Shown piece by piece: positions 1,279-30,323 of a stretch of 64,000 nt of DNA (its first letter is position 1; the number at the start of each line of letters is the position of its first letter). The stretch is from an archaeon CG10_big_fil_rev_8_21_14_0_10_43_11 (lineage in GTDB: Archaea > Nanobdellota > Nanobdellia > PEZQ01): assembly GCA_002763265.1 (NCBI GenBank), contig PEZQ01000007.1, positions 63,368-127,367 of the forward strand. Reading direction: 5' to 3'. The notes beneath the pieces are model-generated. The model did no database searches, was not told where the DNA came from, and worked only from the letters and a program-made list of their open reading frames with translations. Made by a program: the position numbers and the translations under genes.

Positions 1279-1306
1279 ACTAAGACAGTCCCTCCCTTTA
1301 AATGAG

Positions 1307-1381: not shown

Positions 1382-1500
1382 GTTTAGTATGAGTGCAACT
1401 AAAAAAGTCAGAAGTACTGGCGGTTTCTGGGACACTCACCATACATAACAACAGTTACACCCTTAAATGCCTTAAAAAAGTTTCCACCACCCCAAAAATC

Positions 1501-3126
1501 CTACTTGCGGTAAGGTGAGCTAAAACTCTTATTGCGGTAGAGAAGGTAGCCAACAATTCCTGCTGCTCCGACAAAAATGAAGATGATAAGCGCAGAGACA
1601 AGGGTAATTACCGACTCTTTTTGTGCTAGCGCGCACCCGCTTGTTGTGCATGATGTTTCACATACTTCAACAACAACCCAGGCAAGGCCATCACTTGAAC
1701 AGCGTTCAAGCACGTTGTCAGAACAGCGTGGCTGATTTGGCGTGCAGGCTAAACTCGCTTCTTCAATGAGCGCGTCAGCAAACAATTCTGAGGAAAACCC
1801 GTTTACAAGCGTGTTAAGCACGCTTGAAGAATTAGATATTTCGCGCGAAACCGTGTAGTTTACCACAAACTCGTCACCAGGCTCAACAGAATCGTAGGTA
1901 ATAAGGTATTCAGGGTCTGCAGTAACCACTTGAATAGAACGCGCGCCACGCGCGCTTACGATAATGCTTCCCGCGTGCTCTGCAAACGTTTTTGGAACGC
2001 GCTCGTAGATGGTGAAGTTTTGAACAGAATGATTTCCCGCATAGCGTATTCGTGTGCTCACTACGGTCCTTCCGGGTTCAGCGCGTGCGCTGCGGTCAAT
2101 ACTTGTTTGTGAAGTGATAAGTTGTGAGAGCTGCAATAAGTTCTGCTGAGCAGGGTCTGCAAGCTTATCTGCTGCAAGCACGTTTTCGAGTGCGCCAAGG
2201 AGTTTTGTGTTATTGATAATGCCCCGCGGTGCGATGGTTCGTTGCGTGCGCGCCATTGATTGAGTAACATTACTTAGTGCTTCCTCTTCTGTTTCATTCG
2301 TTGTGGCTGATTGAGTTTGGTTTGTTTGCGTTTCGTTTATTGTCTGCGTCTGGTTCGTGCTGGATGATGGCGTATCATACGATACTACTGTAGTAGTCGT
2401 GCTTGAAGAAGATGCAGTCACCGTAAGAGACGTGTACTCAACAAGCGTTTGCCCGTTGCCACCCGTAATAGTTGTGCTCACGTTATACGTATTAGCTGAT
2501 GATGCTGAAAGCGAGTAATTAAGGTCAATAACTGAACCCCCCGTAATAGAGCCGCTTACAGAGCCTGACACAAGTGACGCACTCACGCCAGAGGGAGATG
2601 AGGAAACACTTACTGAATAATTTGTTGTTTCTCCCCCCGTGTTGTGAACGCTTACTGCCCAATAGGACGCAGCACTTGCAGTAACACTTGAGGCTGAAAG
2701 CGCTGATGAGGACGCAGCCAGACTCGCAGGAGCAGGAACAATAAGCCCGGTTTGCTGACTGTCTGAAAGGCTTCCGCCCGTACCTGAATCAGTGCCTGAA
2801 AGGCTTGCCGTGATTTGACCGGTGTAATCGCCTGCAAGACTAGCAGAACACGACCAGCTGGCAGAACCAGTGCCTGACGCACTTAATGAAACATCTTGAG
2901 GCGTTGAGGGTGAACATGACACGCCTGAAGGCAGGGTGAGTGATGCTTTAACACTTGACACTTGCGAGCCTGAAGCATATAATGAAATTGTGAAAGAAGA
3001 CGCTTGTGACGCGCTGTCAGGAATACTGATGCTCGTAATTGAAAGCGAACCTGCTGCGTGCGCGGGAAGCGCAAACACACTAAACGCTACAAAAAGGGCT
3101 GCAATCAGTAATGCGTTTCGTTTCAT
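1501..3126 (-). CDS. Ser/Thr-rich secreted cell-surface protein with C-terminal Cys cluster and single TM anchor
   Basis: 541-aa ORF; N-terminal signal peptide MKRNALLIAALFVAFSVFALPAHA; very high Ser/Thr content; C-terminal CTPNQPRCSDNVLERCSS...CETSCTTSGCA followed by TM helix and YRNK tail. Start abuts the stop of the upstream 1732-aa gene. Confidence 0.6.
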   Translation of the reverse strand: MKRNALLIAALFVAFSVFALPAHAAGSLSITSISIPDSASQASSFTISLYASGSQVSSVKASLTLPSGVSCSPSTPQDVSLSASGTGSASWSCSASLAGDYTGQITASLSGTDSGTGGSLSDSQQTGLIVPAPASLAASSSALSASSVTASAASYWAVSVHNTGGETTNYSVSVSSSPSGVSASLVSGSVSGSITGGSVIDLNYSLSASSANTYNVSTTITGGNGQTLVEYTSLTVTASSSSTTTTVVSYDTPSSSTNQTQTINETQTNQTQSATTNETEEEALSNVTQSMARTQRTIAPRGIINNTKLLGALENVLAADKLADPAQQNLLQLSQLITSQTSIDRSARAEPGRTVVSTRIRYAGNHSVQNFTIYERVPKTFAEHAGSIIVSARGARSIQVVTADPEYLITYDSVEPGDEFVVNYTVSREISNSSSVLNTLVNGFSSELFADALIEEASLACTPNQPRCSDNVLERCSSDGLAWVVVEVCETSCTTSGCALAQKESVITLVSALIIFIFVGAAGIVGYLLYRNKSFSSPYRK

Positions 3127-6100
3127 TTATGACACCGAAAATATGTTTGTTGCAACTGCAGTTGCTGAAGATATGTCAAGGCGGACAAAGTAATTACCAC
3201 TCATCGTATTCGTGCTGTTGAGCACGCCATAATAATTACTGCCTGATACTTGGTTGAGCGGAGTTGAAAACGAGGTGGTCTCGTTTGATGTTGCATTAAA
3301 CGTAATGGTAGTTGCCGTTGCATTTGCTTCATTAGTCAAAAGATACACGTCTTCGTTACTTGCAAAGCGTGTCGCGTTAGTTGACACACTTGAACCTGTC
3401 CAGATAATTGGAACTGACCCTGACGCAGGCGCAACGCTTACAACTTTTGTCTCGCTTCCCACACCAGGAACAAACGCTTTGAACACGTACAAGCCAGGAC
3501 TTGCAAGGGTGATATTAACAGGCGTGACTTGTGAAATGCCGCCACTCAAAACCACACTTCCATTATCATAAGCAAGGTTTTTTGCTGCAGGCGAGAACAC
3601 AGTAAGATTTGCTGTCGTGCTCGCGCTTGAACTGAGATTTGCAAGGAAACTTTCTCCTGCAACAATTGATGGAACGGAGAGATTGATTTGGGCGCCTGCA
3701 CTCTTTATGCTAATAAACGCAAAGCCAAAACCAACTGACTGGTTTACAAACATGCGCACACCAACAGGGTAGTCGCCAAGAACGCTTGTTTCATTAGGAA
3801 TTGAAATATTTATTATGTATGGCTGGCTTCTACCTGTAGTATTAAATGCCTGTTTGATTTCTCCTTTTGGCGTGAAAATTGAAATTGAACTGCTTGAAGC
3901 ATTAACCTCGCCACCAAGGGTTACATTAATGACCTGCACATTAAGCGTAATGTTCTCGCCTGGCGCGTACTGAGGTTTTGATGAATTAACCACCACTTTT
4001 AAGCGGCTGACTGCAAATCCTGAGTAGAATTGCACACTTGGACTGTTCGTAAGAAAGGCATGGATGAAATAATCGCCGTCAGTGTTGTTTGCAGTTATGT
4101 TGTATGTTATTTTTGCAACACCTGACGCGCCAGTTATTGCCGTTCCAACCGTGGTTGGCTTAAGCGTTTTTGAACCGATTTCAAATGTCACGTTCTTTCC
4201 AGCAATAGCAGTGTTATTCGAGAATGATACGAGTGCACTAAACGTAGCAACATCACCGGGACGGTATGGGTTTTGGAAAGGCTTGTCTGATTTTGCATCA
4301 ATGTTGAGTGCAGTGCCACCGGTAACAACAAAGTGTACTGGCGGCGCAAACCCGCGCTCGCCGCTTGGCGTTGTCACACTCACTTCAAGGTCGTAGCTGT
4401 GTGTTGGCGCGTCTTGCGGGATTGGAAAGCTGATTGTTGCGTTTCCGTCAGTTGTCGTGTTTGATGGAAGCTCAATGCGGTTTCCAAACGCCCAGATAAT
4501 ACCATCAACAACAGAATCGTCTGGCACGTTTCCACTGTTTGACGCATTAATAAAGAGCGTTACAAAAGAGCCCGGTGTTGCGTTGTATGACGTGACTTCG
4601 CTTCCCGCAGTAGCGTTAAGCAAGCTCACTTTAAGCGAAGATACCTGCAATCCAATGAATTGTGATTGACCGCCAACAACGATTCGCACGTAGTTGAAAC
4701 CGGGTTTTGACGCGTTCAAAAGCACGCTTGCCCGACCGGCTTCGTTTGTAGTGCTCACATTCGCGCTTACGTTAATATCATTTGGCGGTTGGGCTTTAAA
4801 GAGCGTTGCTGCAACGGCAGTTGCGTCAATAGCGGTGCCGTTTGGATAACTTACACTAATCGTGACATTCACGTGTTCGTTGGTATCATAACTGAATTTG
4901 TCTGTTTGCGCGTGTATGATGTACGCGTTCACGTCAAAGCCGGTGAAGAATTTTTGAGAATTTGCATTTGCATCAGTAACCGTAAGCTTAACATCGTGAT
5001 GGCCTACCGCATGACTGCTCAAATTAACGTGCCAAAAACCGCCATCAACTTGTTCGCCAGCAAATGAAACTGAATCGTTTCCGTCAACAACGGCGCTTAT
5101 CGAACTTATTGACACGTCAGGCGGGAAGAACATGTTAATGAACACGTCATCAGTAGCTTCGTACACAGGACGATCAGGGTGGACAAAAGAATCAAGACCG
5201 CGAATATCAAAGCCATAGAATGTTTCAATCCGCACCACGTCAGTTCCTGTATCACGCGAGATTTTGAGTTGCACGTTATGGAAGCCAAAACTCCACTGCC
5301 CGTTCGTGCCAAGACTTGCTGGGTCAAGTGAAATACTTGTTTTTCCATCACTGCCCGTGAGATTAATAATTGGCGTATTACTATTATCAACTACTGCCTC
5401 AACAGTTGCATTCACAAGCGGGTCGTTGTCTGCAGCGTTCAATACTTCAACATTCAGCTTGACTATGTCTTCTGGTTTGTATTTTTGGCGTTCTGATTCA
5501 ACTTTGATGTTAAGATTGCTGACTTGAATCCACCGGTTTGAAACACCATACCGTCCGTCTGCTTCAATTTTCACGGTAAGTTCGTAGAAACCCACTGAGG
5601 AAGGCATAGTGAGGTTAAGTGTTCCTTCACCATCAGCAATGCCTGAAGACGCGTTTACGATGCTCACTGCGTTGCCGTTTGCGTCATGCATTTCAACAAT
5701 GATGGCTGACGTGTTTTGCGCAACAGGTCCTGTTGCGTTGAACGCGAATATTTTTGCCGAAACGCTTTGTCCCGTGCCAAAACTAAAGCCCGGTAGGTCA
5801 AGACCAAGCACGAAGTCAAAAAGATTGATAGGAAAAATCGTGGTTGAAGAGAACGTCACGCCGTCAGTACTGTTTGTTGCATTAAGCAGCAACCAGTACT
5901 TGTCACCAATAAGACCGAGTTCGCTTGCGTTAAGGGTTGCATTAAAACTGTTTGCCCCCGGACCGGTTGGGTCAAAGGTGAAATTGATTGGGCTGTCTGT
6001 TGCAGAAGATTTGTTGACAAAAAGTATGTGGCCGGTGAGGTTAACAAAGGTGCTGTTTAATGGTCCGGTGCTGCCCATAACTGATGCAAAGAGTGTATTA

Positions 6101-8325
6101 TTGTCTGAGAGCGTCATTGAGTCAGGAAACATTGGCTGCACCTGCCACGCGTTTCCTCTTCGCAGGTTAACATTTGTTGTTGCTCCTGCAGTAATTGTAA
6201 ATGCTGTGCTGTTATACACACCAAGAAAACGACTCATTTCAAAGCGAGGCGCGAGCTCAATTGTGTAGGAGCCTGCTGGAAGCGGGATGCTGATATTTAG
6301 GTCAGGATTTTGGCCAAAACCAAGAATGTCTTGGAGTATTGTGCCATCAGGGTTGAGGTAGTAGATAGTTTTCCCGTTTACTGAATTTCTAATGACAATG
6401 TTTGTTTCAAACCAGAAATTGAACTGCGAAATGAGTTGCGGACTTCCCCCGGTTGGATTAAAAATATTTTGAAAATCAGTAACTGAAAGATTAAGTGAGC
6501 CCGGCTCTGAAAGATTGCAGGTGCTTGCTGTTGCACTTCCTTGCATAATTGTTACTTCGCTTTGACACACACCAATTGCAGGACTACTCCCCCCTGGCCC
6601 GCCGCCAAACGTGGAATTTTTTCCAAGCAAGTTGAAAAACACATCATCATTAGACACGGGTGCAAGCAGTGAGAGAATCAGGTTTTGCGGCAGCGACACA
6701 CCAGTAAAAATTGAAAGCATGTTGATTTTTCCTGCAACTGCGCTTCTCAAAAGACCGATACCATTTGTAACCACTTTACTTAACTCGCTTAACACAAGAG
6801 CCGCGCTGTTGAGCGTTACATTAATGTCAACGCGACCACCATCCTCGAGTTGAAGGGGTGAGAGAATTACTGTTGCGCTTTGCGCGAAGTAACCGCGGTT
6901 TCCATTTGTTTCCACCGTAGGGAAGTATATTGGCACGCCATCAGTAGTTTCATTGCTGATAATATAAAACTGGTAGATAGGGTATGGATAGGAACCAAAA
7001 TCATCTGAAATCATTTGCGTTGTTGGCACGCTTAAACTAAATCTTCCGTTTGCGTCAGTAACGGTTGAATTAATAAACGAGATACCAAAACCACCACCCC
7101 CTCCCTGATAGAGTTGGGCATAAACAATCGCGTTAGGAACGGCATTTTTTGTGCTGTTTATGACTTTGCCAATAAACGCGGTGTAATTAGTAGTAGTGTT
7201 CACAACAGTGATATCCGCGCCAGTCATGCCAGTTGACGGTGTCATGAACGGATACGAACGCAAGCCGACTCCTGACACGTTTGCTTGGATATTATAGAAG
7301 TGATTGTTTGCAATAAAAAAAGGAAAACCTCCTTTTGGTCCATCACCGCCGCCTTGCGGGGGTACGGAGTGGTAGACAAGTGCGTCGGTTTCATAATCGG
7401 TTAAGTTAAGTTCTGCAATGTTTGGCTGTGAGGGCATGCCTGGTGAAGTGCTGTACAATTGGGGCGAGACAAAACCCACTGCTGCGGGCGTTTGAAGAAT
7501 TACGTTAAGCGCGGTGCCCGGAGTGATATTGACAACCGCGGACGTGTTTGATGTAATAAAATCAAAAGCAAAAATGGATGCGGTCGCGTTTATCTGGCAA
7601 TCACTTGAAGGTCCTTCGCCTTCTGAAGGAAACGGTATGCCCCGCGTTACGCACATGTTATTGGATATGGCGGGTGTTGGGCTGATACAATCACCTGAAT
7701 CAACTTGTCCTAAACAATGAATTGCGTAATACCCTGAGGTATCTGTTGCTGCAGGACCTGACGCGATAAAAGATTTTGTGCCATTATTGTAGGTCATGAG
7801 CAGTGTGTTTTGAATTGGGTTATCATCTTCATCAAGCGCGTGCAACGCAACGTAGTTGATGGTAAACATGCTGCCGTTACAGCCCACGCCTTCGGCGCAT
7901 TCTGCAGCGGTAGTTGCGTAATTTGTTTTGTTAAAAAGCGTGGCATTAATTTGAATCGTACTGTTTGTAAATGGCGCGTTCGTAGCATTTAATACGAGGT
8001 CTACACAACCCCCTCCTGTTTCATTAGTGAGCCCGACTGCGTTGTCGAAGGGAGCACCATTAAGAAGCGTTGCGTTTGTTATGTTAAATTCAGGACTTGA
8101 GAAATTAAAAGGACCCGTGCCATCATACCAGAGGTTGAAATCCTTGACTGTTTGAAGCGTGCCCGCACAAATGGTTATGCTTTGGTTGCCAGCAGTATTG
8201 TACGCGTCAGAAAGACAAAACAGAGTTTGACACGAGTTTTGCAAAACAGCGTAAGACGACGCAGGCAAGAGCAGGATAGGTGCTAAAAACAACAAAACGT
8301 ATACTGCCCCCTTCCCACCCAACAT
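3127..8325 (-). CDS. Giant secreted surface protein (1732 aa), sequon-rich, probable S-layer or adhesin-like glycoprotein
   Basis: Uninterrupted 5.2-kb ORF; signal peptide MLGGKGAVYVLLFLAPILLLPASSYA; many N-x-S/T sequons (NQS, NFS, NIT, NAT, NLT...); no recognisable enzymatic motifs. Confidence 0.6.
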   Translation of the reverse strand: MLGGKGAVYVLLFLAPILLLPASSYAVLQNSCQTLFCLSDAYNTAGNQSITICAGTLQTVKDFNLWYDGTGPFNFSSPEFNITNATLLNGAPFDNAVGLTNETGGGCVDLVLNATNAPFTNSTIQINATLFNKTNYATTAAECAEGVGCNGSMFTINYVALHALDEDDNPIQNTLLMTYNNGTKSFIASGPAATDTSGYYAIHCLGQVDSGDCISPTPAISNNMCVTRGIPFPSEGEGPSSDCQINATASIFAFDFITSNTSAVVNITPGTALNVILQTPAAVGFVSPQLYSTSPGMPSQPNIAELNLTDYETDALVYHSVPPQGGGDGPKGGFPFFIANNHFYNIQANVSGVGLRSYPFMTPSTGMTGADITVVNTTTNYTAFIGKVINSTKNAVPNAIVYAQLYQGGGGGFGISFINSTVTDANGRFSLSVPTTQMISDDFGSYPYPIYQFYIISNETTDGVPIYFPTVETNGNRGYFAQSATVILSPLQLEDGGRVDINVTLNSAALVLSELSKVVTNGIGLLRSAVAGKINMLSIFTGVSLPQNLILSLLAPVSNDDVFFNLLGKNSTFGGGPGGSSPAIGVCQSEVTIMQGSATASTCNLSEPGSLNLSVTDFQNIFNPTGGSPQLISQFNFWFETNIVIRNSVNGKTIYYLNPDGTILQDILGFGQNPDLNISIPLPAGSYTIELAPRFEMSRFLGVYNSTAFTITAGATTNVNLRRGNAWQVQPMFPDSMTLSDNNTLFASVMGSTGPLNSTFVNLTGHILFVNKSSATDSPINFTFDPTGPGANSFNATLNASELGLIGDKYWLLLNATNSTDGVTFSSTTIFPINLFDFVLGLDLPGFSFGTGQSVSAKIFAFNATGPVAQNTSAIIVEMHDANGNAVSIVNASSGIADGEGTLNLTMPSSVGFYELTVKIEADGRYGVSNRWIQVSNLNIKVESERQKYKPEDIVKLNVEVLNAADNDPLVNATVEAVVDNSNTPIINLTGSDGKTSISLDPASLGTNGQWSFGFHNVQLKISRDTGTDVVRIETFYGFDIRGLDSFVHPDRPVYEATDDVFINMFFPPDVSISSISAVVDGNDSVSFAGEQVDGGFWHVNLSSHAVGHHDVKLTVTDANANSQKFFTGFDVNAYIIHAQTDKFSYDTNEHVNVTISVSYPNGTAIDATAVAATLFKAQPPNDINVSANVSTTNEAGRASVLLNASKPGFNYVRIVVGGQSQFIGLQVSSLKVSLLNATAGSEVTSYNATPGSFVTLFINASNSGNVPDDSVVDGIIWAFGNRIELPSNTTTDGNATISFPIPQDAPTHSYDLEVSVTTPSGERGFAPPVHFVVTGGTALNIDAKSDKPFQNPYRPGDVATFSALVSFSNNTAIAGKNVTFEIGSKTLKPTTVGTAITGASGVAKITYNITANNTDGDYFIHAFLTNSPSVQFYSGFAVSRLKVVVNSSKPQYAPGENITLNVQVINVTLGGEVNASSSSISIFTPKGEIKQAFNTTGRSQPYIINISIPNETSVLGDYPVGVRMFVNQSVGFGFAFISIKSAGAQINLSVPSIVAGESFLANLSSSASTTANLTVFSPAAKNLAYDNGSVVLSGGISQVTPVNITLASPGLYVFKAFVPGVGSETKVVSVAPASGSVPIIWTGSSVSTNATRFASNEDVYLLTNEANATATTITFNATSNETTSFSTPLNQVSGSNYYGVLNSTNTMSGNYFVRLDISSATAVATNIFSVS

Positions 8326-8341
8326 TATAACATATTACACT

Positions 8342-8357
8342 GTTAAATATATATAAA
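8342..8357 (-). promoter_or_regulatory. TATA-like promoter element (GTTAAATATATATAAA on + strand) 17 nt upstream of the 1732-aa gene start
   Basis: AT-rich element read on minus strand as TTTATATATATTTAAC; the identical 16-mer recurs at the same spacing upstream of the 544-aa surface protein gene (16795-16810). Confidence 0.5.
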
Positions 8358-8411
8358 CTTGCTTGAAAAAGAGCACAACATTATAATGCATGCACGCGCA
8401 CAAGACACGGT

Positions 8412-9059
8412 ATGGAGCAAGAATTGCGCATCGTTGTTGACCATCGCGAGCTCAAAAGTGGAGTTGTCAAAGAATTGTTTCGAAACAAGGTACATATCAT
8501 AACTGAACAACTCGCGATTGGTGATTTCATTCTTGGCGAGCATGTAGTGTGCGAGCGAAAAGGCGTGGAAGATTTTGTAAACAGCCTACTTGACGGAAGA
8601 CTCTTCAAACAAGTCAAACAGCTTAAAGACGCGTACAAAAAACCGTTTCTTATTATTGAAGGCACGCGAGACATGTACTCGGTTCGAAACGTGCACGCAA
8701 ATGCAATACGCGGGGCAATGGCAAGCCTTGCTCTTGACTTCTCATTACCCATTATTTTTACAAAAGATGAAAAAGATACGGCTCACTTTTTTATCACCAT
8801 TCTCAAGCGCGAAAAAACTGACACGCAGGCAAACCTGCGTGCAGCACCAAAACCTTTAACGGACGTTGAATTGATGGAATACATCGTGTCCTCGTTTCCG
8901 GGAGTGGGAAGACGAACTGCGCAAAATATTCTCTTACAATTCAAAACCATTCATTCATTTGTCACAAGCGAACATGAACAGCTTACAAGCGTTGAGGGTG
9001 TGGGAAAAATCACGGCAGAACGCATTAAAGACATTATACAAAAGAGGTATAAACAATAA
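8412..9059 (+). CDS. XPF/Hef-type structure-specific nuclease (ERCC4 nuclease domain plus C-terminal HhH2)
   Basis: 215 aa; ERCC4 signature VVDHRE...GDFILGEHVVCERKGVEDFVNSLLDGRLFKQ (GDF...ERK...D); C-terminal helix-hairpin-helix FPGVGRRTAQNIL...VEGVGKITAERI. Confidence 0.75.
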   Translation: MEQELRIVVDHRELKSGVVKELFRNKVHIITEQLAIGDFILGEHVVCERKGVEDFVNSLLDGRLFKQVKQLKDAYKKPFLIIEGTRDMYSVRNVHANAIRGAMASLALDFSLPIIFTKDEKDTAHFFITILKREKTDTQANLRAAPKPLTDVELMEYIVSSFPGVGRRTAQNILLQFKTIHSFVTSEHEQLTSVEGVGKITAERIKDIIQKRYKQ

Positions 9060-9373
9060 AAAAATAGCGGGGGGATAGGAGAAAATGCTCTAAATACACG
9101 ACATCCACACTATATGTGAAACGCTATGAATGTTATCAAAAACAAAAGCATCAGGGCTTGAAAAAGATTGAAAACTATGAAAAAACTTGAACCTAAAGTA
9201 ACCAATCAGGAAAACAGGCACGCCTTTATTACGTATTGGTCTGAATACGTGCGAACGCACCCTGATGGAAAACGCAAAACACTTTCCCTTAACTGCAGAA
9301 CAATATTTAACCCTCAAAAAAGAGCCCTACAGCAAGCGCGCGCAAAGATTAAAGATAGCACCACACCTAAAAA

Positions 9374-9997
9374 ATGAGTATGGCATCAAAAAAATGGCAC
9401 GCGTTGTGGACTCCGCAAAACAAAAAACGCCTGCGCGTACTCGAATTCTTCACCCGATTTCTTCTCCTTGCCATCCCGCTCTATCTTATCATGTACTCCC
9501 CACTCTCGCTTTATTTTGCTGAAGACCTTATTGCAAATATCAGCGAATACGCCCTCACTATAAGCGGAAAAGCAGTGTTGAGAAGCGAAGGGGTCGAATA
9601 CAACGGGCTTGCCATGCCCCTACTCTACGTGCAGGGCATTGAAAAAGGCGTGGGAATCGCGCGCGCATGCACGGGCTACCGCTCATTTATCGCGCTTGCT
9701 GCGCTTATCTTCGCGGTGCCGCGCATACCAAACAAGAAACGACTCTTAGGGCTCATAGTCTTTGCACCCATTCTCTTTTTTACAAACATTGTTCGGGTTG
9801 TCTCAACTATCTGGATTGGCGCAACCTTCGGGCTTGACTGGTTTGAGCTCACGCACACATTCTTGTGGAGAGAAGGGCTTATCGCGCTCATCCTGCTCAT
9901 GTGGGTGGTGTGGCTGCTTCGCGTGCAAAACATCTCGATGAGAAGCGTTTGGCGCAGGGCAAAAATGAACGTGACGGGTTTTATACAGAAAATATGA
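9374..9997 (+). CDS. Exosortase/archaeosortase-family membrane protein (short form)
   Basis: 207-aa polytopic membrane protein; ARACTGYRS followed about 35 aa later by TNIVRVVSTIW resembles the Cys-Ser/Thr-Gly and Asn-x-x-Arg signatures of the exosortase/archaeosortase (EpsH) family as recalled from memory. Start codon uncertain. Confidence 0.5.
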   Translation: MSMASKKWHALWTPQNKKRLRVLEFFTRFLLLAIPLYLIMYSPLSLYFAEDLIANISEYALTISGKAVLRSEGVEYNGLAMPLLYVQGIEKGVGIARACTGYRSFIALAALIFAVPRIPNKKRLLGLIVFAPILFFTNIVRVVSTIWIGATFGLDWFELTHTFLWREGLIALILLMWVVWLLRVQNISMRSVWRRAKMNVTGFIQKI

Positions 9998-10024
9998 AAT
10001 ACCCACGCCACATCAAAAACGAGT

Positions 10025-10879
10025 ATGAATGAAAGGGAAGCGCGTGTTGTACAGTACTTGCGAACAAACGGACCAAGCCTGCCAGTACAAGTGTCAAAAG
10101 CACTAGAAGAAAATGTGATGTTTGCTTCAGCACTGCTTGGCGGGCTTGTGGCTACAAAACAAATCAGGCTTACGCGAAAAAAAATCGGCAACTCACCGCT
10201 CTACTTTCTGCCAGAACACATTAATCACGCACGAAGAATCATTTATGACCGACTTGACCCTCGAGAAAAAGAATTAGTTGATTTTGTCACTAAAAAAGGC
10301 GTGGTGCGCGAGGACGAGCTCACCCCAACTGAGCGGTTTTTTATCAAGGACTTGGTTGATTTTTTTGAATCAGAACAAGAAAACAACCAAACGTACTGGA
10401 AAGTGCCCGGAACAAATGCAAAACCAACGCTTGAACCGCCAAAACCTCTTGTGTCAAAACCAGAGCCGAGCGCGCGAAGAGAGGAACAGCAACCCTTTAT
10501 CAAACAAGAAGCAGAACCCCACGAGGAGAAAAAACCCATCCATCTCAAAGATTCAGGTGATGATGAGTTCACGCGCAAAGTAAAACACTTCTTTGTCAAG
10601 CGGGGTATTCGCATTCTCAACACGGATGTGGTGCGAAGCAATGCGGAAATAAACTTTACTGTGCAAATCCAGGGAGACTTGATTCCCCAAACCTATTTTG
10701 TAAAAGCGCGCAAGAAAAAGAAAATCAACGACAACGACCTTATTGCTGCATGGTTTGAGGGACGAAAGCAAAAAGCACCCATACTCTATCTCGCAACAGG
10801 AGAGCTCACTAAAAAAGCGGAAAAATTCTTAAAAGAAGAGTTTGGCGAAAACTTCACGTTTCTCAAAGTAAGCGTGTAG
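10025..10879 (+). CDS. Hypothetical protein, N-terminal winged-helix-like region, acidic linker and C-terminal alpha/beta domain
   Basis: 284-aa ORF with coding-like composition; no catalytic motif recognised with confidence. Confidence 0.35.
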   Translation: MNEREARVVQYLRTNGPSLPVQVSKALEENVMFASALLGGLVATKQIRLTRKKIGNSPLYFLPEHINHARRIIYDRLDPREKELVDFVTKKGVVREDELTPTERFFIKDLVDFFESEQENNQTYWKVPGTNAKPTLEPPKPLVSKPEPSARREEQQPFIKQEAEPHEEKKPIHLKDSGDDEFTRKVKHFFVKRGIRILNTDVVRSNAEINFTVQIQGDLIPQTYFVKARKKKKINDNDLIAAWFEGRKQKAPILYLATGELTKKAEKFLKEEFGENFTFLKVSV

Positions 10880-10916
10880 AAATCTTTAAAATCCAACATG
10901 CAATGTTCTTACATTC

Positions 10917-11894
10917 ATGGAATCAGATGCCAAAATCTATGTTGCAGGACACCGCGGACTTGTAGGCTCCGCGCTTGTGCGAAAACTTGAAGAGCGGGGC
11001 TACACCAATCTTGTGTACAAAACCTCACGCGAACTTGACTTGCGACGACAAAGCAGTGTTGAAGCATTCTTTCAAAAAGAAAAACCAGAGTATGTTATCA
11101 TTTCTGCAGCAAAAGTTGGCGGCATCATGGCAAATAAACAATCACCTGCAACCTTTCTTACTGACAATCTGCTTATTGAAACTAATCTTATCAAAACCGC
11201 GTACGAGACGGGCGTAAAAAAACTATTGTTTCTTGGAAGCTCGTGCGTTTACCCAAAATTCGCGCGCCAACCCATGCGAGAAGAATACTTTCTTACCGGT
11301 CCGCTTGAGCCAACCAATGAAGGGTATTCTGTTGCAAAAATTGCGGGCATGGAACTGTGCAAACACTACCACACCCAATACGGGGCGGAATTTTTCTCAG
11401 TCATGCCCACAAACCTATATGGCCCGCACGACAATTTTGACCTCACGTCTTCGCACGTGATTCCCGCGCTCATACGCCGATTTCACGAAGCAAAAGAGCG
11501 CGCAGACAAGACCGTGACGCTTTGGGGAACGGGCAGTGCAAAGCGCGAGTTCATGCACGTGGACAGCTTGGCAGATGCGCTCGTCTACGTGATGGAACGC
11601 GTGAGTCTCGAAGACATTGCACGCCTTGACTGGGAAGAAAACGCGCCAAACAAAACCTTTGTCAACATTGGCACGGGAACTGACATCAGCATCAAAGACC
11701 TTGCCTACAAGATAAAAGACATTGTCGGCTACTCGGGACGCATTGAACACGACCTTACCAAGCCTGACGGCACGCCACGAAAACTCTTGGACGTATCAAA
11801 ACTCTCACAACTTGGCTGGAAAGCAACCATTGATTTTGACGCAGGCCTTAAACAAACCTACGCATGGTATCTTGAAAACATAGCCTCACGCTAA
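10917..11894 (+). CDS. fcl: GDP-L-fucose synthase (GDP-4-keto-6-deoxy-D-mannose 3,5-epimerase/4-reductase)
   Basis: 325 aa; N-terminal Rossmann IYVAGHRGLVGSAL; SDR catalytic region GSSCVYP...YSVAK; overall collinear with bacterial Fcl/WcaG. Confidence 0.85.
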   Translation: MESDAKIYVAGHRGLVGSALVRKLEERGYTNLVYKTSRELDLRRQSSVEAFFQKEKPEYVIISAAKVGGIMANKQSPATFLTDNLLIETNLIKTAYETGVKKLLFLGSSCVYPKFARQPMREEYFLTGPLEPTNEGYSVAKIAGMELCKHYHTQYGAEFFSVMPTNLYGPHDNFDLTSSHVIPALIRRFHEAKERADKTVTLWGTGSAKREFMHVDSLADALVYVMERVSLEDIARLDWEENAPNKTFVNIGTGTDISIKDLAYKIKDIVGYSGRIEHDLTKPDGTPRKLLDVSKLSQLGWKATIDFDAGLKQTYAWYLENIASR

Positions 11895-12015
11895 AAGACG
11901 CAAGCGCAAATGGAGAGGATACTGAAGAAGCAAAAAGGAAAGATTAAATCTTTAAGTTGAGAACGTGTAGCTGATAATAAGAGTTATATGGCTCAAAGCA
12001 TTATACGTTTTTATA

Positions 12016-12225
12016 ATGAAAGAATTTAATATAATTATTGAAAAAGGTGAAGATGGTTATTTAATTTCTGAAGTAGTTGGACTTCCTGGATGCCATACAC
12101 AAGCAAAATCTATGGATGAATTGATTAAGAGAACTAAAGAAGCAATTTCATTATATCTTAAATCCAAAGATGACTCTGTTGACGTTACAGACACGTTCAT
12201 AGGTATGCAGAAAATAGCACTATAA
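12016..12225 (+). CDS. hicB: HicB-family antitoxin
   Basis: 69-aa protein MKEFNIIIEKGEDGYLISEVVGLPGCHTQAKSMDELIKRTKEAISLYL typical of HicB/UPF0150; immediately followed by hicA with a 1-nt gap. Confidence 0.6.
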   Translation: MKEFNIIIEKGEDGYLISEVVGLPGCHTQAKSMDELIKRTKEAISLYLKSKDDSVDVTDTFIGMQKIAL

Positions 12226-12226
12226 C

Positions 12227-12454
12227 ATGTCAAAATTGCCACTTTTATCCGCTAGAGTATTCTTTAAAGTTTTAAGTAAACTTGGGTTTGAAAAGATAAG
12301 GCAAGAAGGAAGCCACGTATTTTTTAGGCATCCAGACGGAAGAACAACGGTAGTACCGAATTACCCTAGAGAAAAACTGAATCGTGGACTTCTAAATAAA
12401 ATTGTAAAGAAGGATTTGGAAATTACAAGAGATGACTTAATGAAACACGTGTAG
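12227..12454 (+). CDS. hicA: HicA-family toxin (mRNA interferase)
   Basis: 75 aa; KVLSKLGFEKIRQEGSHVFFRHPDGRTTVVPNYP matches the HicA dsRBD-like motif (GSH...H). Confidence 0.7.
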   Translation: MSKLPLLSARVFFKVLSKLGFEKIRQEGSHVFFRHPDGRTTVVPNYPREKLNRGLLNKIVKKDLEITRDDLMKHV

Positions 12455-12584
12455 ACCAACTTTTTCGATTTCGTCTAACTGGGAGAAAAAAGTTAAGGAA
12501 TAGAATACCCTATACGGGTCTAATATAGAACCATCCTATTATTAGTCTGAAAGTACACGCGCGTTGTCATGCGTGTGCGCACGC

Positions 12585-13250
12585 TTAAAGAAGGTGACGC
12601 TGTGCGCGCATCACATATTCGCGCGCCTCGTCATGGCTTAGAAGCTCAATGCTGCCTTTTTTGGCAAGCGCAGTGAGCTCTTCTTTAAGCATGGAGTGAT
12701 AGTTGTCAAAGCCTTTTAGCGCAAGAAGAGCCGATGCATTGTGGCGCGGGTCTTTGATGAATAAGAAACTTTTTTTGTCTTTTGCAAGAAAGCGCGTCCA
12801 TAACCTGTTTTCGGGAATGAGCATGACGCCAATCTTAGCACGCTCAAACGCAATTTGTTCACGCGCATTAAAAAGCAGGGTGCCAAACGCGTTTTTGCCA
12901 ACGCGTGAGCGGCGCTCTTTTGGAATAACGGTAAGGTATTCTAAAAACAGTAAGCGTTTTATAATCGCATCAAGTTTTGGAATTGATAAAAAATCTTGGA
13001 CAAAACCCGCATGGCAGTTTTGAGAAAAGAGCGCGTAGCCAATAACGTGAAACCCGTGTTCTTCGCGTTTTGCAAGCAGTAATACTTCAAACTCGTTGAG
13101 CATGGAAAAAAACGCGCGCGCGTGTTTTTTATTAAACCAGTACCACGCGGCGCGAGCTTGTGCCGGGTTTTTCGCACACGCGAAACAAGTGTTCTTGCGG
13201 TTTTTTGCAATCCGTTGCGTATTCAAGATTTTCAAAAAGCACGTGCGCAT
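12585..13250 (-). CDS. Hypothetical protein, possibly frameshifted (overlapping ORF 13132-13368 in another frame)
   Basis: 221-aa ORF; a 78-aa ORF overlaps its 5' end in a different frame, suggesting a frameshift or alternative start; no confident family assignment. Confidence 0.3.
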   Translation of the reverse strand: MRTCFLKILNTQRIAKNRKNTCFACAKNPAQARAAWYWFNKKHARAFFSMLNEFEVLLLAKREEHGFHVIGYALFSQNCHAGFVQDFLSIPKLDAIIKRLLFLEYLTVIPKERRSRVGKNAFGTLLFNAREQIAFERAKIGVMLIPENRLWTRFLAKDKKSFLFIKDPRHNASALLALKGFDNYHSMLKEELTALAKKGSIELLSHDEAREYVMRAQRHLL

Positions 13251-13400
13251 CGTGGTCGTTTTTGAAGTGAAATACGTGGTAGGGCTCGCTTTGCCATAAC
13301 CGGTTGCGTGCGCATTCGCGCTCTTTTTTCCACACGTTCATACCCGTACGTAAAGCATGTGCGCGCATATAAGAATTGTTGAAAAAAAAGGTGGGGGGTA

Positions 13401-13475
13401 TAGCGGGAGGAGGATTTGAACCTCCGACCTCAGGGTTATGAGCCCTGCGAGCACTCCAAACTGCTCTATCCCGCT
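13401..13475 (-). tRNA. Initiator tRNA-Met (anticodon CAU)
   Basis: Minus-strand AGCGGGATAGAGCAGTTTGGAGTGCTCGCAGGGCTCATAACCCTGAGGTCGGAGGTTCAAATCCTCCTCCCGCTA: A1:U72 pair and three consecutive G:C pairs in the anticodon stem (GGG/CCC) are archaeal initiator hallmarks; loop CTCATAA. Confidence 0.85.
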
Positions 13476-13556
13476 ATCAATAGGTTCTCTAAGGGCTATA
13501 CCCTCGCCGTACTTGAAACATGAAAGCTCCTTTTAAAGTTAACTGAAACGTAGACG

Positions 13557-13587
13557 TTGCACATAACGTGACTATAGTTATGTGCAA
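13557..13587. repeat. Perfect inverted repeat TTGCACATAAC-(9 nt)-GTTATGTGCAA
   Basis: Seen directly: 11-nt arms separated by a 9-nt spacer, between tRNAi-Met and the RelE-like TA pair. Confidence 0.6.
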
Positions 13588-13725
13588 AGCCCAATTCTTA
13601 ATAACTTTTTTAAATGTGAACGACCATTTTAACAAATGTGTTGAGGGATTGAGGGGGAGTCGCATGCTAATTTATAATTCTAGTATTACAAAAAAGTTTA
13701 AAAAGACTTTAGCATTCGCTAACTC

Positions 13726-13965
13726 ATGCTTATGACAAATAAATCGTTCATAGATTCAGAAGATGTGTTGGATGTTGAATTCGCGATTAAGAACGCAGAA
13801 GAATATCAAACCATTGAAGAATTAGCAAATGAGATAAAGAAAAGTAAGAAACTTGTAGAGCGAATCGTCTTTTATTTGCAAGAAAAGAACAGAGTCATAC
13901 TAAACAAGGAGAAAAAGATTATCTGGATTTACCAGCCAGAACTAATAAAAAACGCGGTGTTTTAA
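13726..13965 (+). CDS. Putative antitoxin of RelE/ParE-type TA pair
   Basis: 79-aa ORF placed 3 nt upstream of a RelE-like toxin ORF; AT-rich; assignment by context only. Confidence 0.3.
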   Translation: MLMTNKSFIDSEDVLDVEFAIKNAEEYQTIEELANEIKKSKKLVERIVFYLQEKNRVILNKEKKIIWIYQPELIKNAVF

Positions 13966-13968
13966 AAA

Positions 13969-14307
13969 ATGGCTTGGTGGGAGGATAAGGAAATAAAAGT
14001 GGGTTTCTTAAACAAAGACGTTGAAAACCAGATTGAAGAATTCAACAACAGCAGTTTCAAAGCAATATATCATAAGATACAAGAAATTAAAAAATTGTTG
14101 AAAGACAATCCAGAAATGGGAAGAAACGTTAAAAAGAAGCTCATTCCCAAAAAATATAGGGGTTTTTCAAACCTTAACATAATCAATCTCCCCGACGGTT
14201 ATAGATTATTATACACCATTGGAGGTTCTAATGATATTGAAATTGTGGGCGTTTTGCTTGTAGATTGCTTATCCCACCCTGATTATGATACACTTTTTAA
14301 TTTCTAA
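13969..14307 (+). CDS. RelE/ParE-superfamily toxin (putative)
   Basis: 112 aa; C-terminal PDGYRLLYTIGGSNDIEIVGVLLVDCLSHPDYDTLF resembles the RelE/YoeB core (YR..Y ... I.H..DY). Confidence 0.45.
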   Translation: MAWWEDKEIKVGFLNKDVENQIEEFNNSSFKAIYHKIQEIKKLLKDNPEMGRNVKKKLIPKKYRGFSNLNIINLPDGYRLLYTIGGSNDIEIVGVLLVDCLSHPDYDTLFNF

Positions 14308-14467
14308 TACTGAGCGTTCCCCCTATTTTGGTGAGTTCTCTTAATTCTTTTGATGTCATTATCCAGAATGCGTCATTACTTTCTTTTATGTAGTTGAATA
14401 CGCGGTGAATTGCGCCCAGGCAGACCCCGCAAAAGAATGTGAAAAAAAAGAGTTGGTGATGAACCGT

Positions 14468-15154
14468 TTAGAGTTGGCTCATCATTTGTTTGCGGTACAG
14501 GTAGAGTGCAGCTGCAATAATCACAACTACAATGCCCGCAAGTCCAATCCAAAGCATCCAGTTCGTGCGTGGTTCTTCTTCGCTCACGCCGGTTTGAGCA
14601 GTTACGTTCTCTTCTGCAACCGGTGCTGAGATAACATCTGCTTCTGCACAGTCTGCTTCACAGCTTGCTGTAGTCTCGCTACCTTCACAGACGCCGTCTC
14701 CGCACGTGATGGTTCGTACCGTGACGGTTTGTGCCGCGCTTTCCTGACTGACTGAAGTTGGTGTTGATTGCGCGTACAAGTAGGGTCCAAACGAATAGCT
14801 GCCTTCAGTGATTGGCGCGAGCGTGGTGTACGAAAACGTGGCGCTCGTGAGGTTTTGAAGTGACGTGTCAAATTCAACGTCAATGTTTTGTCCGACAATC
14901 GTGACAGTAACGTAATCTTGTGAGAACCCGCTTACTGACCAGTCTTGCACGCTCCAGCCGTTTGGTAGTTTGTCTGAGAGCGCGAATCCTGCGGGGCTCT
15001 CGGTTACGATGCTAACACTTATAGTCACGATTTCTCCAGATGCTGCGCGCGCGGGGCTGATGCTTCTGCTCACGCTCTCAGCGTGTGCTGCACCTATGAA
15101 TAAGAGGAGTGCGAGTGCGAATACGATTTTTTTCATGATTTTTCTATCCTCCAA
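14468..15154 (-). CDS. Secreted surface protein with C-terminal Cys cluster and single TM anchor
   Basis: Signal peptide MKKIVFALALLLFIGAAHA (from the internal Met); C-terminal CGDGVCEGSETTASCEADC then TM helix and YRKQ tail; same topology as the 541-aa protein. Overlaps the stop of the upstream 544-aa gene. Confidence 0.5.
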   Translation of the reverse strand: MEDRKIMKKIVFALALLLFIGAAHAESVSRSISPARAASGEIVTISVSIVTESPAGFALSDKLPNGWSVQDWSVSGFSQDYVTVTIVGQNIDVEFDTSLQNLTSATFSYTTLAPITEGSYSFGPYLYAQSTPTSVSQESAAQTVTVRTITCGDGVCEGSETTASCEADCAEADVISAPVAEENVTAQTGVSEEEPRTNWMLWIGLAGIVVVIIAAALYLYRKQMMSQL

Positions 15155-16778
15155 AGTATGTTTCTATTGAGTCAAAGAGTTCTCTGAGCGTGAGCGCGCT
15201 TGAACCGCTAAAGTACGAGTCTATCAGGTCAAACAAGTCTCGAAGCGTGCTTATGGTGGTTTCAAGTTTTGCAAAGATTGCAAAGTACGAGAAGCCAGGC
15301 GTTTTTGCTTCAAAGTAGTAGTTCTCGCCGTCACTGCTCACAAGGGTTGTTGGCAACGTGCTCCACGCCCCGTTGTGGAAGCGGGTGAGCCTGATTTGAT
15401 TGGTTTTGTAGCCGTTTTCTTCAAGCCATGCTTTTGGCAGCTGGAATTCTACAACTGCTTCTTCAATGTCATCGTTGCTCACACTTGACGTAAATTCAAG
15501 GTAGCGGTAGATTTCTGAGAGTCCTGCAATTGCAAAGCCTGACGTTTCAGTTGGTTCTTCAGCGAGGGTTTGCACACTTATTGTGACGTTTGTTTGCGTG
15601 TTTTTTGTGGTAATGCTCAGTGATTTAATGTTCGTGCTGCTTGCATTTTCAAATTCAAGTTTTTTAGCAAGTCCCGGCGGCACGATTGGAAGCGTTTTGT
15701 TGACTTTAACCACGTTTACTTGTGCGGGCGTGTTTTTGGTCTTGTTTGTTGCAGGCGTGCTTGTTGAAACCGTGATGGTGACTCCTGCCCCCACTGCGTA
15801 ACTGAGGCTGAAGTATTGGGTTGATGACGTGCCGTAGTTTCCTGCAGCGTCACTGCACGTTACATTGATTGCGTGCTGTCCGTTTGCAAGGTCTGAGGTG
15901 TTGACTGACGTGGCCGTGTTGTTTGTTGCCGAGCCAATCGTAGTATTTGCGCCATCAAGCGTGTAGAGGCACGTGGAAGAGGTTGATATGTCATCCACTG
16001 CCGTGAACGTGACATTAACAAGCGTGGTGTTATAGGTAAGATTCAATGGATACGTCAAGCTCACGGTTGGAGCCACTGAGTCAATTGAGAATGATGTTTT
16101 ATTATTAATGTTAGAATAAATGAAATCACCCGTGCCATCTTGCGCGTGAGCGCTCAAGAATGCAGTATAGTTTCCTGTTGTCGCAAGCGTTTCAGCAGTG
16201 AGGTTCCAGGTAATATTATAGCGAAGTTCGCCTCCCGCATACAAACCAGAATCACTATATCCCGAAACATATCCATACCCATAGCCGTTAGCGAAAGATT
16301 CGTTGTTATTACCATACGACGTTGAGCTTATGTCGTATCCATATCCGTACCCATATAGATTCGTGCTTGACGCATAACCAACCGTGTAAATTGGGTAGAT
16401 AGTAAGATTTCCGCAACCAGAAACTGCAGTACCACCCGGCGTGAACACACACGTTTTGTTGACTTGACCACTAGAAATTGTAAGTGTCAAATTCTTAACA
16501 GGTATTCGCTCACCTGCATCAATATCAACGCCAACAGTAAAGTTTACGGGGTCAAGTGCTTTGTAGGTTGACTTATCTGCAGATGATGTGACGGTGACTG
16601 CCTGAGCTGGTCCTGAAAGAATTAACAAACTGAGTATGAGAAATGATACAATGAATGGACGCAGAATTTTTTTCTTGTCTTTTTTTGCGGGTCCTAGATA
16701 GATGCTCTTAACTTTGCCATCTACTCGTGCTGACTCGTAAAGATATTCCTTCCCATTAATGGTTCGTTTGAAAGCCAT
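15144..16778 (-). CDS. Cell-surface protein with Tyr/Gly repeats and a C-terminal PGF-pre-PGF-like region
   Basis: 544 aa; hydrophobic segment ILRPFIVSFLILSLLILSGPAQA; YGYGYGY and NGYGYGY repeats; near C-terminus ...NGAWSTLPTTLVSSDGENYYFEAKTPGFSYFAIFA followed by two tandem about 14-aa repeats (LRDLFDLIDSYFSG / LRELFDSIETYFGG). Confidence 0.5.
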   Translation of the reverse strand: MAFKRTINGKEYLYESARVDGKVKSIYLGPAKKDKKKILRPFIVSFLILSLLILSGPAQAVTVTSSADKSTYKALDPVNFTVGVDIDAGERIPVKNLTLTISSGQVNKTCVFTPGGTAVSGCGNLTIYPIYTVGYASSTNLYGYGYGYDISSTSYGNNNESFANGYGYGYVSGYSDSGLYAGGELRYNITWNLTAETLATTGNYTAFLSAHAQDGTGDFIYSNINNKTSFSIDSVAPTVSLTYPLNLTYNTTLVNVTFTAVDDISTSSTCLYTLDGANTTIGSATNNTATSVNTSDLANGQHAINVTCSDAAGNYGTSSTQYFSLSYAVGAGVTITVSTSTPATNKTKNTPAQVNVVKVNKTLPIVPPGLAKKLEFENASSTNIKSLSITTKNTQTNVTISVQTLAEEPTETSGFAIAGLSEIYRYLEFTSSVSNDDIEEAVVEFQLPKAWLEENGYKTNQIRLTRFHNGAWSTLPTTLVSSDGENYYFEAKTPGFSYFAIFAKLETTISTLRDLFDLIDSYFSGSSALTLRELFDSIETYFGG

Positions 16779-16794
16779 TACTTTTCATAAGCGT

Positions 16795-16810
16795 GTTAAA
16801 TATATATAAA
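16795..16810 (-). promoter_or_regulatory. TATA-like promoter element (GTTAAATATATATAAA), second copy
   Basis: Identical 16-mer and identical 17-nt spacing to the start codon as at 8342-8357. Confidence 0.5.
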
Positions 16811-16976
16811 GCTTTTTACATTACTCAATAAGGCATTTACACTACGCTAAAAATGTGTTACACTACAGAGTGAGAACGTGTTTATTTCTTTTTCAAGTTC
16901 TTTAAGCTCGTTTATTAACCCATTCCCCTGCGTGGTGTTTTTCAAGAAATTGTGCGGCATTGAAAGTATGTAACAA

Positions 16977-17789
16977 TTAGACTGCTTCTTGTTCTTCTGC
17001 TTCCCCGCTGTTAATCAGCAAACTTGAAATCAGTATGAGCAATCCGCCCGCAATGCTTATTCCAATCCCCAAAGCTCCAATGTCTCTGGTTTTAACGTAT
17101 AAAATTGCTACACCAATGAGCGAAAGCGCTGCACTAAGAAGGTAATCCCCTTTCGTTACTTTTTTTGTCTTCTCTTCTTGTTTGACGGGATGAAAAAAGG
17201 TTGCTGCGCCAAGAATGGATATGATGATTATAGCGTATGTGAAATTTATAGATAATTCTTTGAATTCATTTACGAGAAGTAAACACAAAAAGATAAGGAT
17301 GCTTAATTGAAATGCGTAGTTTATGAGGAGTTCTGTTTTTTGTTCGTGATGAGAATATTCGTGTAATTTTGTATGTGCGTAACGTCTAGTATGTTTGAAC
17401 TGTCTTGACAGGATTATTTTTATATGGTTAACCGTATTGAGAGGTATTCTTTTTTTGAAATACGCCATAGTTTTGCCCACTGTTTTTGCAAGCGCTCGTA
17501 CGTTGCGATTGAATGAAGTGAATGTTTTTTTGAGTAGTTTGCTTATTGTTTTTACGGGTTTTATTCTGTTAAGAAAACAGCGGATACTCACTACATTCCT
17601 GTGCCGTAAACGAAAGTTTATGCGCACAGCGAGTGTGAGTGTTGCAACACCCAGCGTTAAGAGCAGTATCCGTTCTGATAGGTTTTGCAGATACGTGCTT
17701 TCTCCTTTTACAAACCAAAGAACGAGGGTTACCAAAGTTAGGCTGCTTAATGTTTCTCCTAGTATTTGTTTTATTTTTTGTTTTTCCAT
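16977..17789 (-). CDS. Hypothetical polytopic membrane protein
   Basis: 270-aa ORF with several hydrophobic helices and a basic cytoplasmic loop; overlaps the next ORF by 19 nt in a different frame. Confidence 0.35.
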   Translation of the reverse strand: MEKQKIKQILGETLSSLTLVTLVLWFVKGESTYLQNLSERILLLTLGVATLTLAVRINFRLRHRNVVSIRCFLNRIKPVKTISKLLKKTFTSFNRNVRALAKTVGKTMAYFKKRIPLNTVNHIKIILSRQFKHTRRYAHTKLHEYSHHEQKTELLINYAFQLSILIFLCLLLVNEFKELSINFTYAIIIISILGAATFFHPVKQEEKTKKVTKGDYLLSAALSLIGVAILYVKTRDIGALGIGISIAGGLLILISSLLINSGEAEEQEAV

Positions 17790-18175: not shown

Positions 18176-18255
18176 ACGTAAGTGTTGCTAAGTTTTTAAT
18201 GTTATTCAATACGTGACATATTAACTTTTAACTATGCAACCGCTTAGCTATTTGC

Positions 18256-19770: not shown

Positions 19771-19810
19771 ATAGAGTATGGGAGTATAAAACACGGTTAG
19801 TATTATAATC

Positions 19811-25470: not shown

Positions 25471-25525
25471 AGACAACATCAAATTCACAAAACTATTTAT
25501 ATGATTATCAATTGTTATCTTTCAA

Positions 25526-30297: not shown

Positions 30298-30323
30298 GAA
30301 TTAAAAATAAAAAGTAATAGGTA

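Follow-up and report, generated by a model that had tools for sequence, protein, structure and literature searches.

A 64-kb stretch of DNA from an uncultured DPANN archaeon, referred to here as the window, contains two copies of a 16-nt motif, GTTAAATATATATAAA, at positions 8342-8357 and 16795-16810. Each copy lies a short distance upstream of a gene for a large surface protein (1732 and 544 amino acids, aa), and each of these genes is followed by a smaller gene encoding a transmembrane (TM)-anchored partner (541 and 222 aa, respectively). We put the probability at roughly 80% that the 16-mer serves as core promoter for two transcription units of two genes each, independent of one another. 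Judged by the placement of the motif, the transcripts are very probably leaderless or nearly so. The motif is an ordinary archaeal TATA-box promoter and not a duplicated gene module, as had been proposed in an earlier inspection of the letters alone (the sequence-only reading).

Because both downstream genes lie on the minus strand, the functional reading of the motif is TTTATATATATTTAACA. On that strand the 16-mer reads TTTATATATATTTAAC, and a trailing A extends the exact identity to 17 nt, giving the two elements listed here.

8341..8357, minus strand: shared promoter core, copy 1, with the TATA box TTTATATA at 8357..8350, which is -32..-25 from the ATG at 8325.
16794..16810, minus strand: shared promoter core, copy 2, with the TATA box TTTATATA at 16810..16803, which is -32..-25 from the ATG at 16778.

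At both loci 16 nt separate the 16-mer from the ATG, corresponding to a coordinate difference of 17 between its last base and the start codon. The 16-mer pair, this 17-nt spacing, the gene sizes of 1732 and 544 aa and the smaller Cys-cluster/TM gene behind each large gene had all been described in the sequence-only reading, and all were confirmed. No other copy of the motif was found in the 64-kb window, even with 2 mismatches allowed. The motif is present in the window twice only, at the same distance from an ATG. Dinucleotide shuffles contained a mean of 0.14 matches to the 16-mer, and 2 matches were reached in 1 of 100 shuffles. A repeat search over positions 1-20000 returned the 17-nt pair as the sole perfect repeat of that length.

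The first 8 nt of the motif, TTTATATA, match the archaeal TATA box (TTTAWATA / TTTATATA) at all 8 positions at both loci, and no gene in the window besides the two surface-protein genes has an 8/8 box at -32. TTTATATA is also the 'A box' of methanogen stable-RNA promoters. The six bases that precede the box, AAAAGC in copy 1 and AGCAAG in copy 2, are purine-rich and resemble a B recognition element (BRE), and the distance from the 3′ edge of the box to the ATG is 24 nt in both cases. The pattern TWTATATA is found in mapped protein promoters of Methanocaldococcus jannaschii, and in 94% of the promoters of this organism the TATA box has its 3′ edge 23 ± 2 nt from the transcription start site (PMC2699501). 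With a box at -32..-25 and 24 nt to the ATG, initiation at the window's two loci is predicted to occur at -1/+1, which would produce an mRNA with no leader or with one of 1 nt. No Shine-Dalgarno-like (GGAGG-like) motif is present in the 16 nt that precede each large-gene ATG. Motifs of this kind do stand ahead of the downstream genes, as GGTG for the 541-aa gene and GGAGGA for the 222-aa gene.

The arrangement extends to other genes of the window. Open reading frames (ORFs) separated by 45 nt or more from the gene upstream were counted as operon-first (31 genes) and the others as internal (30 genes), and all were scored against TTTAWATA. For the operon-first genes the TATA score peaked at -32..-28, with means of 3.5-4.4 versus a background of ~2.7. 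Boxes matching at least 6 of 8 positions were carried by 3-6 genes per offset in this interval and elsewhere mostly by 0-1 (maximum 3); the 30 internal genes of the window showed no peak. The TATA placement at the two surface-protein genes is the rule in this genome and nothing special to the pair, and we attribute their identical spacing to a genome-wide leaderless architecture, not to duplication. Leaderless mRNAs are common in the transcriptomes of Sulfolobus and haloarchaea; we know of no promoter mapping in DPANN archaea, and no search for it was made. Known leaderless promoters of archaea with BRE and TATA elements are alike in the 8/8 box, the purine-rich stretch upstream of it, the spacing and the confinement of Shine-Dalgarno motifs to internal genes.

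Orthologous loci were taken from metagenomes, and also from GCA_053534155.1, which at 62-66% protein identity is the closest sequenced relative and the source of loci L143 and L007. Their promoters are as follows.

L130, 1732-aa family: AAAAA-TTTATATA at exactly -32.
L140, 1732-aa family: TTTATAAG at -34.
L143, 1732-aa family: TTTATATA at -29.
L131, 1732-aa family: the exception, with a box at -49 and then a GGTGA-containing leader.
L007, 544-aa family: AAAAAGA-TTTATATA at -31.
L145, 544-aa family: AAAACA-TTTATAAG at -30.

In L130, L140, L143, L007 and L145, a TATA box is found at -29 to -34 behind an A-rich stretch; the ortholog sequences at this place include AAAAAG(A), AAAAAC and AAAAA. The box and its position are kept and the 17-mer is not, which argues for long-term conservation of the box and for a 17-nt identity that is specific to this genome. 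The proposal, made from the letters alone, that the 16-mer is a promoter giving short or leaderless transcripts is strengthened by its archaeal TATA box, by the same offset at operon-first genes and by conservation in orthologs. Very high expression of both units, as might be anticipated from an 8/8 TATA match at surface-glycoprotein genes, is plausible.

What did not hold is the claim that the operons are paralogs derived from a duplicated promoter-plus-two-gene module, with the 16-mer as a remnant of the duplication. The layout of the two units is the same, with a large secreted protein followed by a small Cys-cluster/TM-anchored protein, and the partner families match one another in hhalign with a probability of 92.5% (E 5e-7). 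A CGDGxC...C..DC motif belonging to the 222-aa family is also present in one ortholog of the 541-aa family, in L131. The large proteins, however, are unrelated (BLASTP E 0.13; hhalign of family alignments, probability 1%). The partner match covers only 63 columns, consisting of the signal peptide and first strands (~40 mature residues), and BLASTP between the 541- and 222-aa proteins gave E 0.10, so that the alignment of the two small partners, suggested earlier as a check, yielded a short N-terminal match and nothing beyond it. Clear homology does exist, but between genes that are not in equivalent places: with an hhalign probability of 99.9% (E 8e-33), the 544-aa family aligns to the 1732-aa operon's small partner family, and not to its large gene, through a PGF-pre-PGF domain that most 541-type partners carry. 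At the DNA level identity ends with the 17-mer. Upstream of it the flanking DNA of the two loci does not align, and downstream the sole shared bases in a 155-nt alignment around both starts are the 'TA' right before the ATG (TAATG). The closest relative has both operons, and their promoters share TTTATATAC only, out of register, which indicates that the long identity is young and the operons old. By these comparisons the four proteins are built from a shared repertoire of envelope modules and the operons are not copies of each other. The duplication is largely refuted, and we regard it as highly improbable.

The two promoters also differ in what lies upstream. The promoter of the 544-aa gene is preceded by an array.

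16858-16866, 16837-16845 and 16816-16824 (span 16816..16866), minus strand: three phased copies of GTAGTGTAA / GTAATGTAA with a period of 21 nt.

In the window, in L007 and in L145, the copy nearest the gene stops 5 nt upstream of the TATA box. L007 contains three exact copies with a period of 32 (9390-9462), and L145 two copies with a period of 21 (346-375). In the other fetched loci (~150 kb) the motif is absent except for one isolated GTAATGTAA in L129, and the 1732-aa promoter has no GTAGTGTAA array. The array looks like a gene-specific binding array for a transcription factor and is a candidate for one. Its presence at the 544-aa promoter only, which also speaks against a duplicated module, argues that the two operons are regulated differently despite their identical core promoter.

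Several points weigh against an interpretation of the 16-mer as a core promoter and nothing more. Beyond the TATA box the two promoters share TATTTAACA at -24..-16, nine further identical bases that the archaeal BRE/TATA consensus leaves unaccounted for. Given the shared TATA box, the chance of nine more identical bases is ~1e-5 by local composition, and the model of a generic promoter has no account of this identity. TATTTAACA is kept in no ortholog of either gene, the closest relative included. The box at -49 in L131, with its Shine-Dalgarno-type leader, means that leaderless expression is not universal in the 1732-aa family. Finally, position and comparison are the basis on which we infer that the 16-mer is a promoter, how strong it is and that transcripts start without a leader.

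With respect to the nine bases, module duplication, long-term selection and extended homology are excluded as causes of the identity. The remaining options are a lineage-specific shared operator or contact for transcription factor B (TFB), a copied short promoter patch, or luck. A search of genome contigs with the 17-mer returned at least 120 single matches, which among the matches listed came mostly from unrelated AT-rich bacteria and did not include the source genome; the scatter of these matches in AT-rich DNA indicates that the 17-mer can arise there by chance. One match, at L017 2071-2103 in a metagenome-assembled genome of Candidatus Woesearchaeota (CAZNQS010000006.1), has the identical 17-mer TTTATATATATTTAACA in front of an unrelated ORF of 138 aa, 13 nt from its ATG and at a spacing comparable with that in the window; this ORF is divergent from a prolyl-tRNA synthetase gene. 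The match indicates that the sequence can arise as a generic DPANN promoter, and it fits one of the leaderless kind.

The first of these options can be stated more strongly, with the 17-mer as something larger than a core promoter: TATTTAACA plus the TATA box would form a shared operator, or an element specific to a paralog of TFB or of the TATA-binding protein (TBP), that co-regulates both envelope operons. When 325 pairs of the window's promoter regions are compared, the in-register run of 17 identical bases is an outlier, with 10, 9 and 7 as the next longest. Coordinated expression would be plausible for the two genes, as their products are envelope glycoproteins, and TTTAAC-type boxes are found at several other promoters of the window. 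But the absence of TATTTAACA from every ortholog, the closest relative's among them, speaks against such an element, as do the lack of a third copy of the 17-mer in 64 kb and the GTAGTGTAA array, which suggests different regulation of the two genes. We consider co-regulation through a dedicated element unlikely.

The self-complementarity of the TA-rich core, ATATATAT, raises a further possibility, namely that the motif is a palindromic bidirectional TATA element which, at 8342-8357, mainly drives a divergent ERCC4/XPF gene together with the 1732-aa gene. This gene starts 86 nt from the 1732-aa gene, and the synteny is kept in L143. At the second locus, however, there is no divergent gene, and the gene upstream (270 aa) is on the same strand. 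A TATA-like box of its own, ATTATAAT, precedes the ERCC4 ATG at -33..-26, and the 54 nt between the 16-mer and that ATG fall outside the usual spacing of this genome. A bidirectional role is thus very doubtful.

On the core-promoter interpretation, expression of the two units would proceed as follows. TBP would bind the TATA box and TFB the BRE, and RNA polymerase would initiate ~23-24 nt past the box's 3′ edge, either at the ATG or at the A of the 'TA' that both loci share in front of it. The first gene would be translated from a leaderless or 1-nt-leader mRNA without a Shine-Dalgarno sequence, the second from the internal Shine-Dalgarno motif (GGTG or GGAGGA), and an oligo-T tract would close each unit. 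Both units encode a large, heavily N-glycosylated secreted protein and a small protein anchored by a C-terminal TM helix, a predicted envelope layout of canopy plus anchor in which the partners are the putative anchors. The features of the first operon are as follows.

3127..8325, minus strand: 1732-aa secreted protein with a signal peptide and arrays of Ig/MG-like beta-sandwiches.
1501..3126, minus strand: 541-aa partner, whose ATG directly abuts the stop codon of the 1732-aa gene.
3136-3133, minus strand: GGTG Shine-Dalgarno-like motif of the 541-aa gene.
1474..1498, minus strand: candidate oligo-T terminators of operon 1, T5 at 1498-1494 and T6 at 1479-1474, directly after the 541-aa stop codon.

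The 1732-aa protein has one significant Pfam hit, to MG2 (E 7.8e-16), with MG4 and bait-region hits below threshold. It contains 76 N-glycosylation sequons versus 29 expected from its composition, a density ~10-fold that of other proteins of the window. The family is conserved over its full length (1710-1813 aa, 33-62% identity), and one member of 2354 aa carries extra PQQ-propeller domains. Named relatives are labelled Aenigmarchaeota, with one labelled Micrarchaeota. From these properties we infer that the 1732-aa protein is a candidate major envelope or surface-layer (S-layer)-type protein.

In the 541-aa partner a signal peptide is followed by a conserved N-terminal region (~residues 26-240) and a middle region, and the protein closes with a Cys cluster, a C-terminal TM helix and a basic tail. 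Partners of this type lie behind the large gene in 10 of 10 orthologous loci examined, with gaps of 0-9 nt or overlaps, and a search of 1.84 billion cluster representatives identified 232 relatives. Among these relatives the C-terminal half (residues ~290-541, window 1501-2250), comprising the middle domain, Cys cluster and TM helix, also ends proteins of 1000-2500 aa, and it may be a reusable membrane-anchor module. A PGF-pre-PGF domain is present in the 1732-aa family's small partner in most other genomes (loci L129-L141). NCBIfam gave no hit for this domain in the window's 541-aa protein, from which we conclude that the partner has lost or replaced it. In this genome and in the closest relative a different middle domain takes its place in the partner, and the separate 544-aa protein carries the PGF-pre-PGF domain.

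The second operon is made up of the following features.

15144..16778, minus strand: 544-aa surface protein.
14468..15136, minus strand: 222-aa partner, with its ATG at 15136, 7 nt after the 544-aa stop codon (228 aa if read from an upstream TTG).
15152-15147, minus strand: GGAGGA Shine-Dalgarno motif of the 222-aa gene, inside the 3′ end of the 544-aa gene.
14442..14449, minus strand: candidate oligo-T terminator of operon 2, a T8 run that begins 18 nt after the 222-aa stop codon.

The PGF-pre-PGF domain of the 544-aa protein (TIGR04213) spans residues 373-502 and scores 98.8 bits against a cut-off of 28 (E 2.9e-28). The protein has 20 N-glycosylation sequons versus 9 expected. An AlphaFold2 model built from 8 sequences (predicted local distance difference test, pLDDT, 70) begins with a small N-terminal beta-sheet (1-30) and a helix, TM or signal, at 36-54, continues with two beta-sandwich regions and the PGF-pre-PGF domain, and closes with two short C-terminal helices. 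No PGF-CTERM anchor was recognized at the C-terminus, which has no PGF motif, TM helix or basic tail and ends ...LRELFDSIETYFGG in the two short helices. Residues 1-30 (window 16689-16778, minus strand) form a conserved segment, MAFKRTINGKEYLYESARVDGKVKSIYLG, ahead of the hydrophobic helix, for which a three-stranded sheet is predicted (pLDDT ~75). On the strength of this model the 544-aa protein may belong to the type II membrane proteins, with a small domain in the cytoplasm, and not be a cleaved secretory protein. Residues 512-544 (window 15147-15245, minus strand), after the PGF-pre-PGF domain, contain a short helical repeat twice, LRDLFDLIDSYF and LRELFDSIETYF, through which the protein could dock onto its TM-anchored 222-aa partner.

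That partner has a signal peptide, one Ig-like beta-sandwich (21-140, pLDDT 85-92), a disordered linker, a C-terminal Cys cluster, a C-terminal TM helix (193-221) and a basic tail, with an overall pLDDT of 72.5. The invariant motif of its family is TVRTITCGDGxCE..E....C..DC. Foldseek searches with the model returned generic Ig-like, pilin, adhesin and cohesin folds only. The pairing of a large gene with a TM-anchored partner is kept for this second module in L007, where two tandem paralogs (731 and 887 aa) stand before the 543-aa ortholog and a 238-aa partner stands after it (4405-11854). These tandem paralogs indicate that the PGF-pre-PGF surface-protein locus varies in copy number between close genomes.

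Identical proteins are recorded as hypothetical (COT72_03840, COT72_03905 and COT72_03910) in 'archaeon CG10_big_fil_rev_8_21_14_0_10_43_11', and a 271-kb ENA contig as well as JGI groundwater contigs carry the same proteins. The genes around the operons give an archaeal and envelope-related impression. Three of them are placed as follows.

8412-9059, plus strand: short ERCC4/XPF-HhH nuclease gene, divergent from the 1732-aa gene and 86 nt away.
9374-9997, plus strand: gene of the exosortase/archaeosortase family, 207 aa, with the generic signature TIGR04178 only and no subfamily cut-off reached.
19811-21277: polysaccharide-biosynthesis/flippase gene (Polysacc_synt/MurJ), inside a low-GC block.

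The first two belong to a plus-strand block (8412-11894) that continues with two more genes, one of 284 aa without assigned function and one for a sugar epimerase. The closest relative keeps the synteny of ERCC4, sortase and large gene (L143 1591-3910). A gene for a DUF1616 membrane protein is also present in the neighbourhood. The low-GC block extends over ~18000-34000, with a GC content of 32-38% versus 40-49% elsewhere, and may be a horizontally acquired or fast-evolving glycosylation island beside the surface-protein genes. Toxin-antitoxin genes are located between a tRNA-Met gene and the second surface operon (13726-14307 and nearby; L001 7325-7635); one set is a ParE-like toxin whose upstream partner has 79 aa, the other a HicA/HicB pair. 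Rfam identified two tRNAs in the window and nothing else.

The organization of the first operon is reminiscent of slaA-slaB of the Sulfolobales, in which a large secreted glycoprotein gene is likewise followed by a smaller, apparently co-transcribed protein gene. The partner here, with beta-sandwich domains and a single C-terminal TM helix, is a possible membrane stalk, and the pair is kept across the family. The partner differs in having a Cys cluster, and the likeness is one of layout and not of family membership. SlaA and SlaB structures are in the PDB, and profile searches of two of the operon-protein families against all PDB chain sequences gave no relevant match. In such searches the 1732-, 541- and 544-aa families had no sequence relative among solved structures. 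By analogy, the large glycoprotein with its TM-anchored partner would have an S-layer role.

A second comparison is with the PGF-CTERM surface proteins processed by archaeosortase A, of which the S-layer glycoprotein of Haloferax volcanii is one. Points of likeness are the PGF-pre-PGF domain, found in the 544-aa protein and in most partners of the 1732-aa family elsewhere, and the exosortase/archaeosortase-family gene that adjoins the 1732-aa operon. In contrast, the 544-aa protein has no PGF-CTERM anchor, the sortase homolog is recognized at the level of the generic signature only, and no sorting signal was recognized in the partner proteins.

The 1732-aa protein is also similar to bacterial alpha-2-macroglobulin-like proteins in its size class (~1700 aa), its MG2 hit and its weak MG4 and bait-region hits. 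Identification as an alpha-2-macroglobulin was rejected: the CxEQ thioester motif is absent from 20 of 20 family members, Pfam gave no hit to a thioester or receptor-binding domain, and the similarity is that of a generic MG/Ig-like beta-sandwich only. A described S-layer protein of Micrarchaeota, of 101 kDa and with S-layer-domain homology (bioRxiv 10.1101/2021.04.28.441871), is set apart from the 1732-aa protein by its description and was not used as a reference.

Three more far-reaching interpretations can be set beside the core promoter. The 1732-aa protein and its TM-anchored partner could be an undescribed two-component S-layer of Aenigmarchaeota-like DPANN archaea, analogous to SlaA/SlaB and unrelated to it in sequence. 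The second module could be a variable PGF-pre-PGF surface protein controlled by a new phased upstream activating array of GTAGTGTAA. And the lineage-specific 17-nt identity could be a shared operator or a copied promoter patch that couples expression. Taken jointly, we view these three with some doubt, as a possibility that falls well short of even odds. What is new is limited to the uncharacterized protein families and the upstream array.

The motif itself matters little, being a standard archaeal TATA-box promoter in a leaderless arrangement. It does mark promoters that are probably the strongest in this part of the uncultured DPANN genome, it backs the start codons annotated for the two large surface-protein genes, and it points to leaderless expression as customary in this lineage. 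With its large glycoprotein and TM-anchored partner, the conserved operon is a good candidate for a cell-envelope scaffold of Aenigmarchaeota-like archaea, and the conserved, phased GTAGTGTAA array is a candidate regulator binding site. Operon and array are leads for work on the envelopes of DPANN archaea and on their attachment to hosts.

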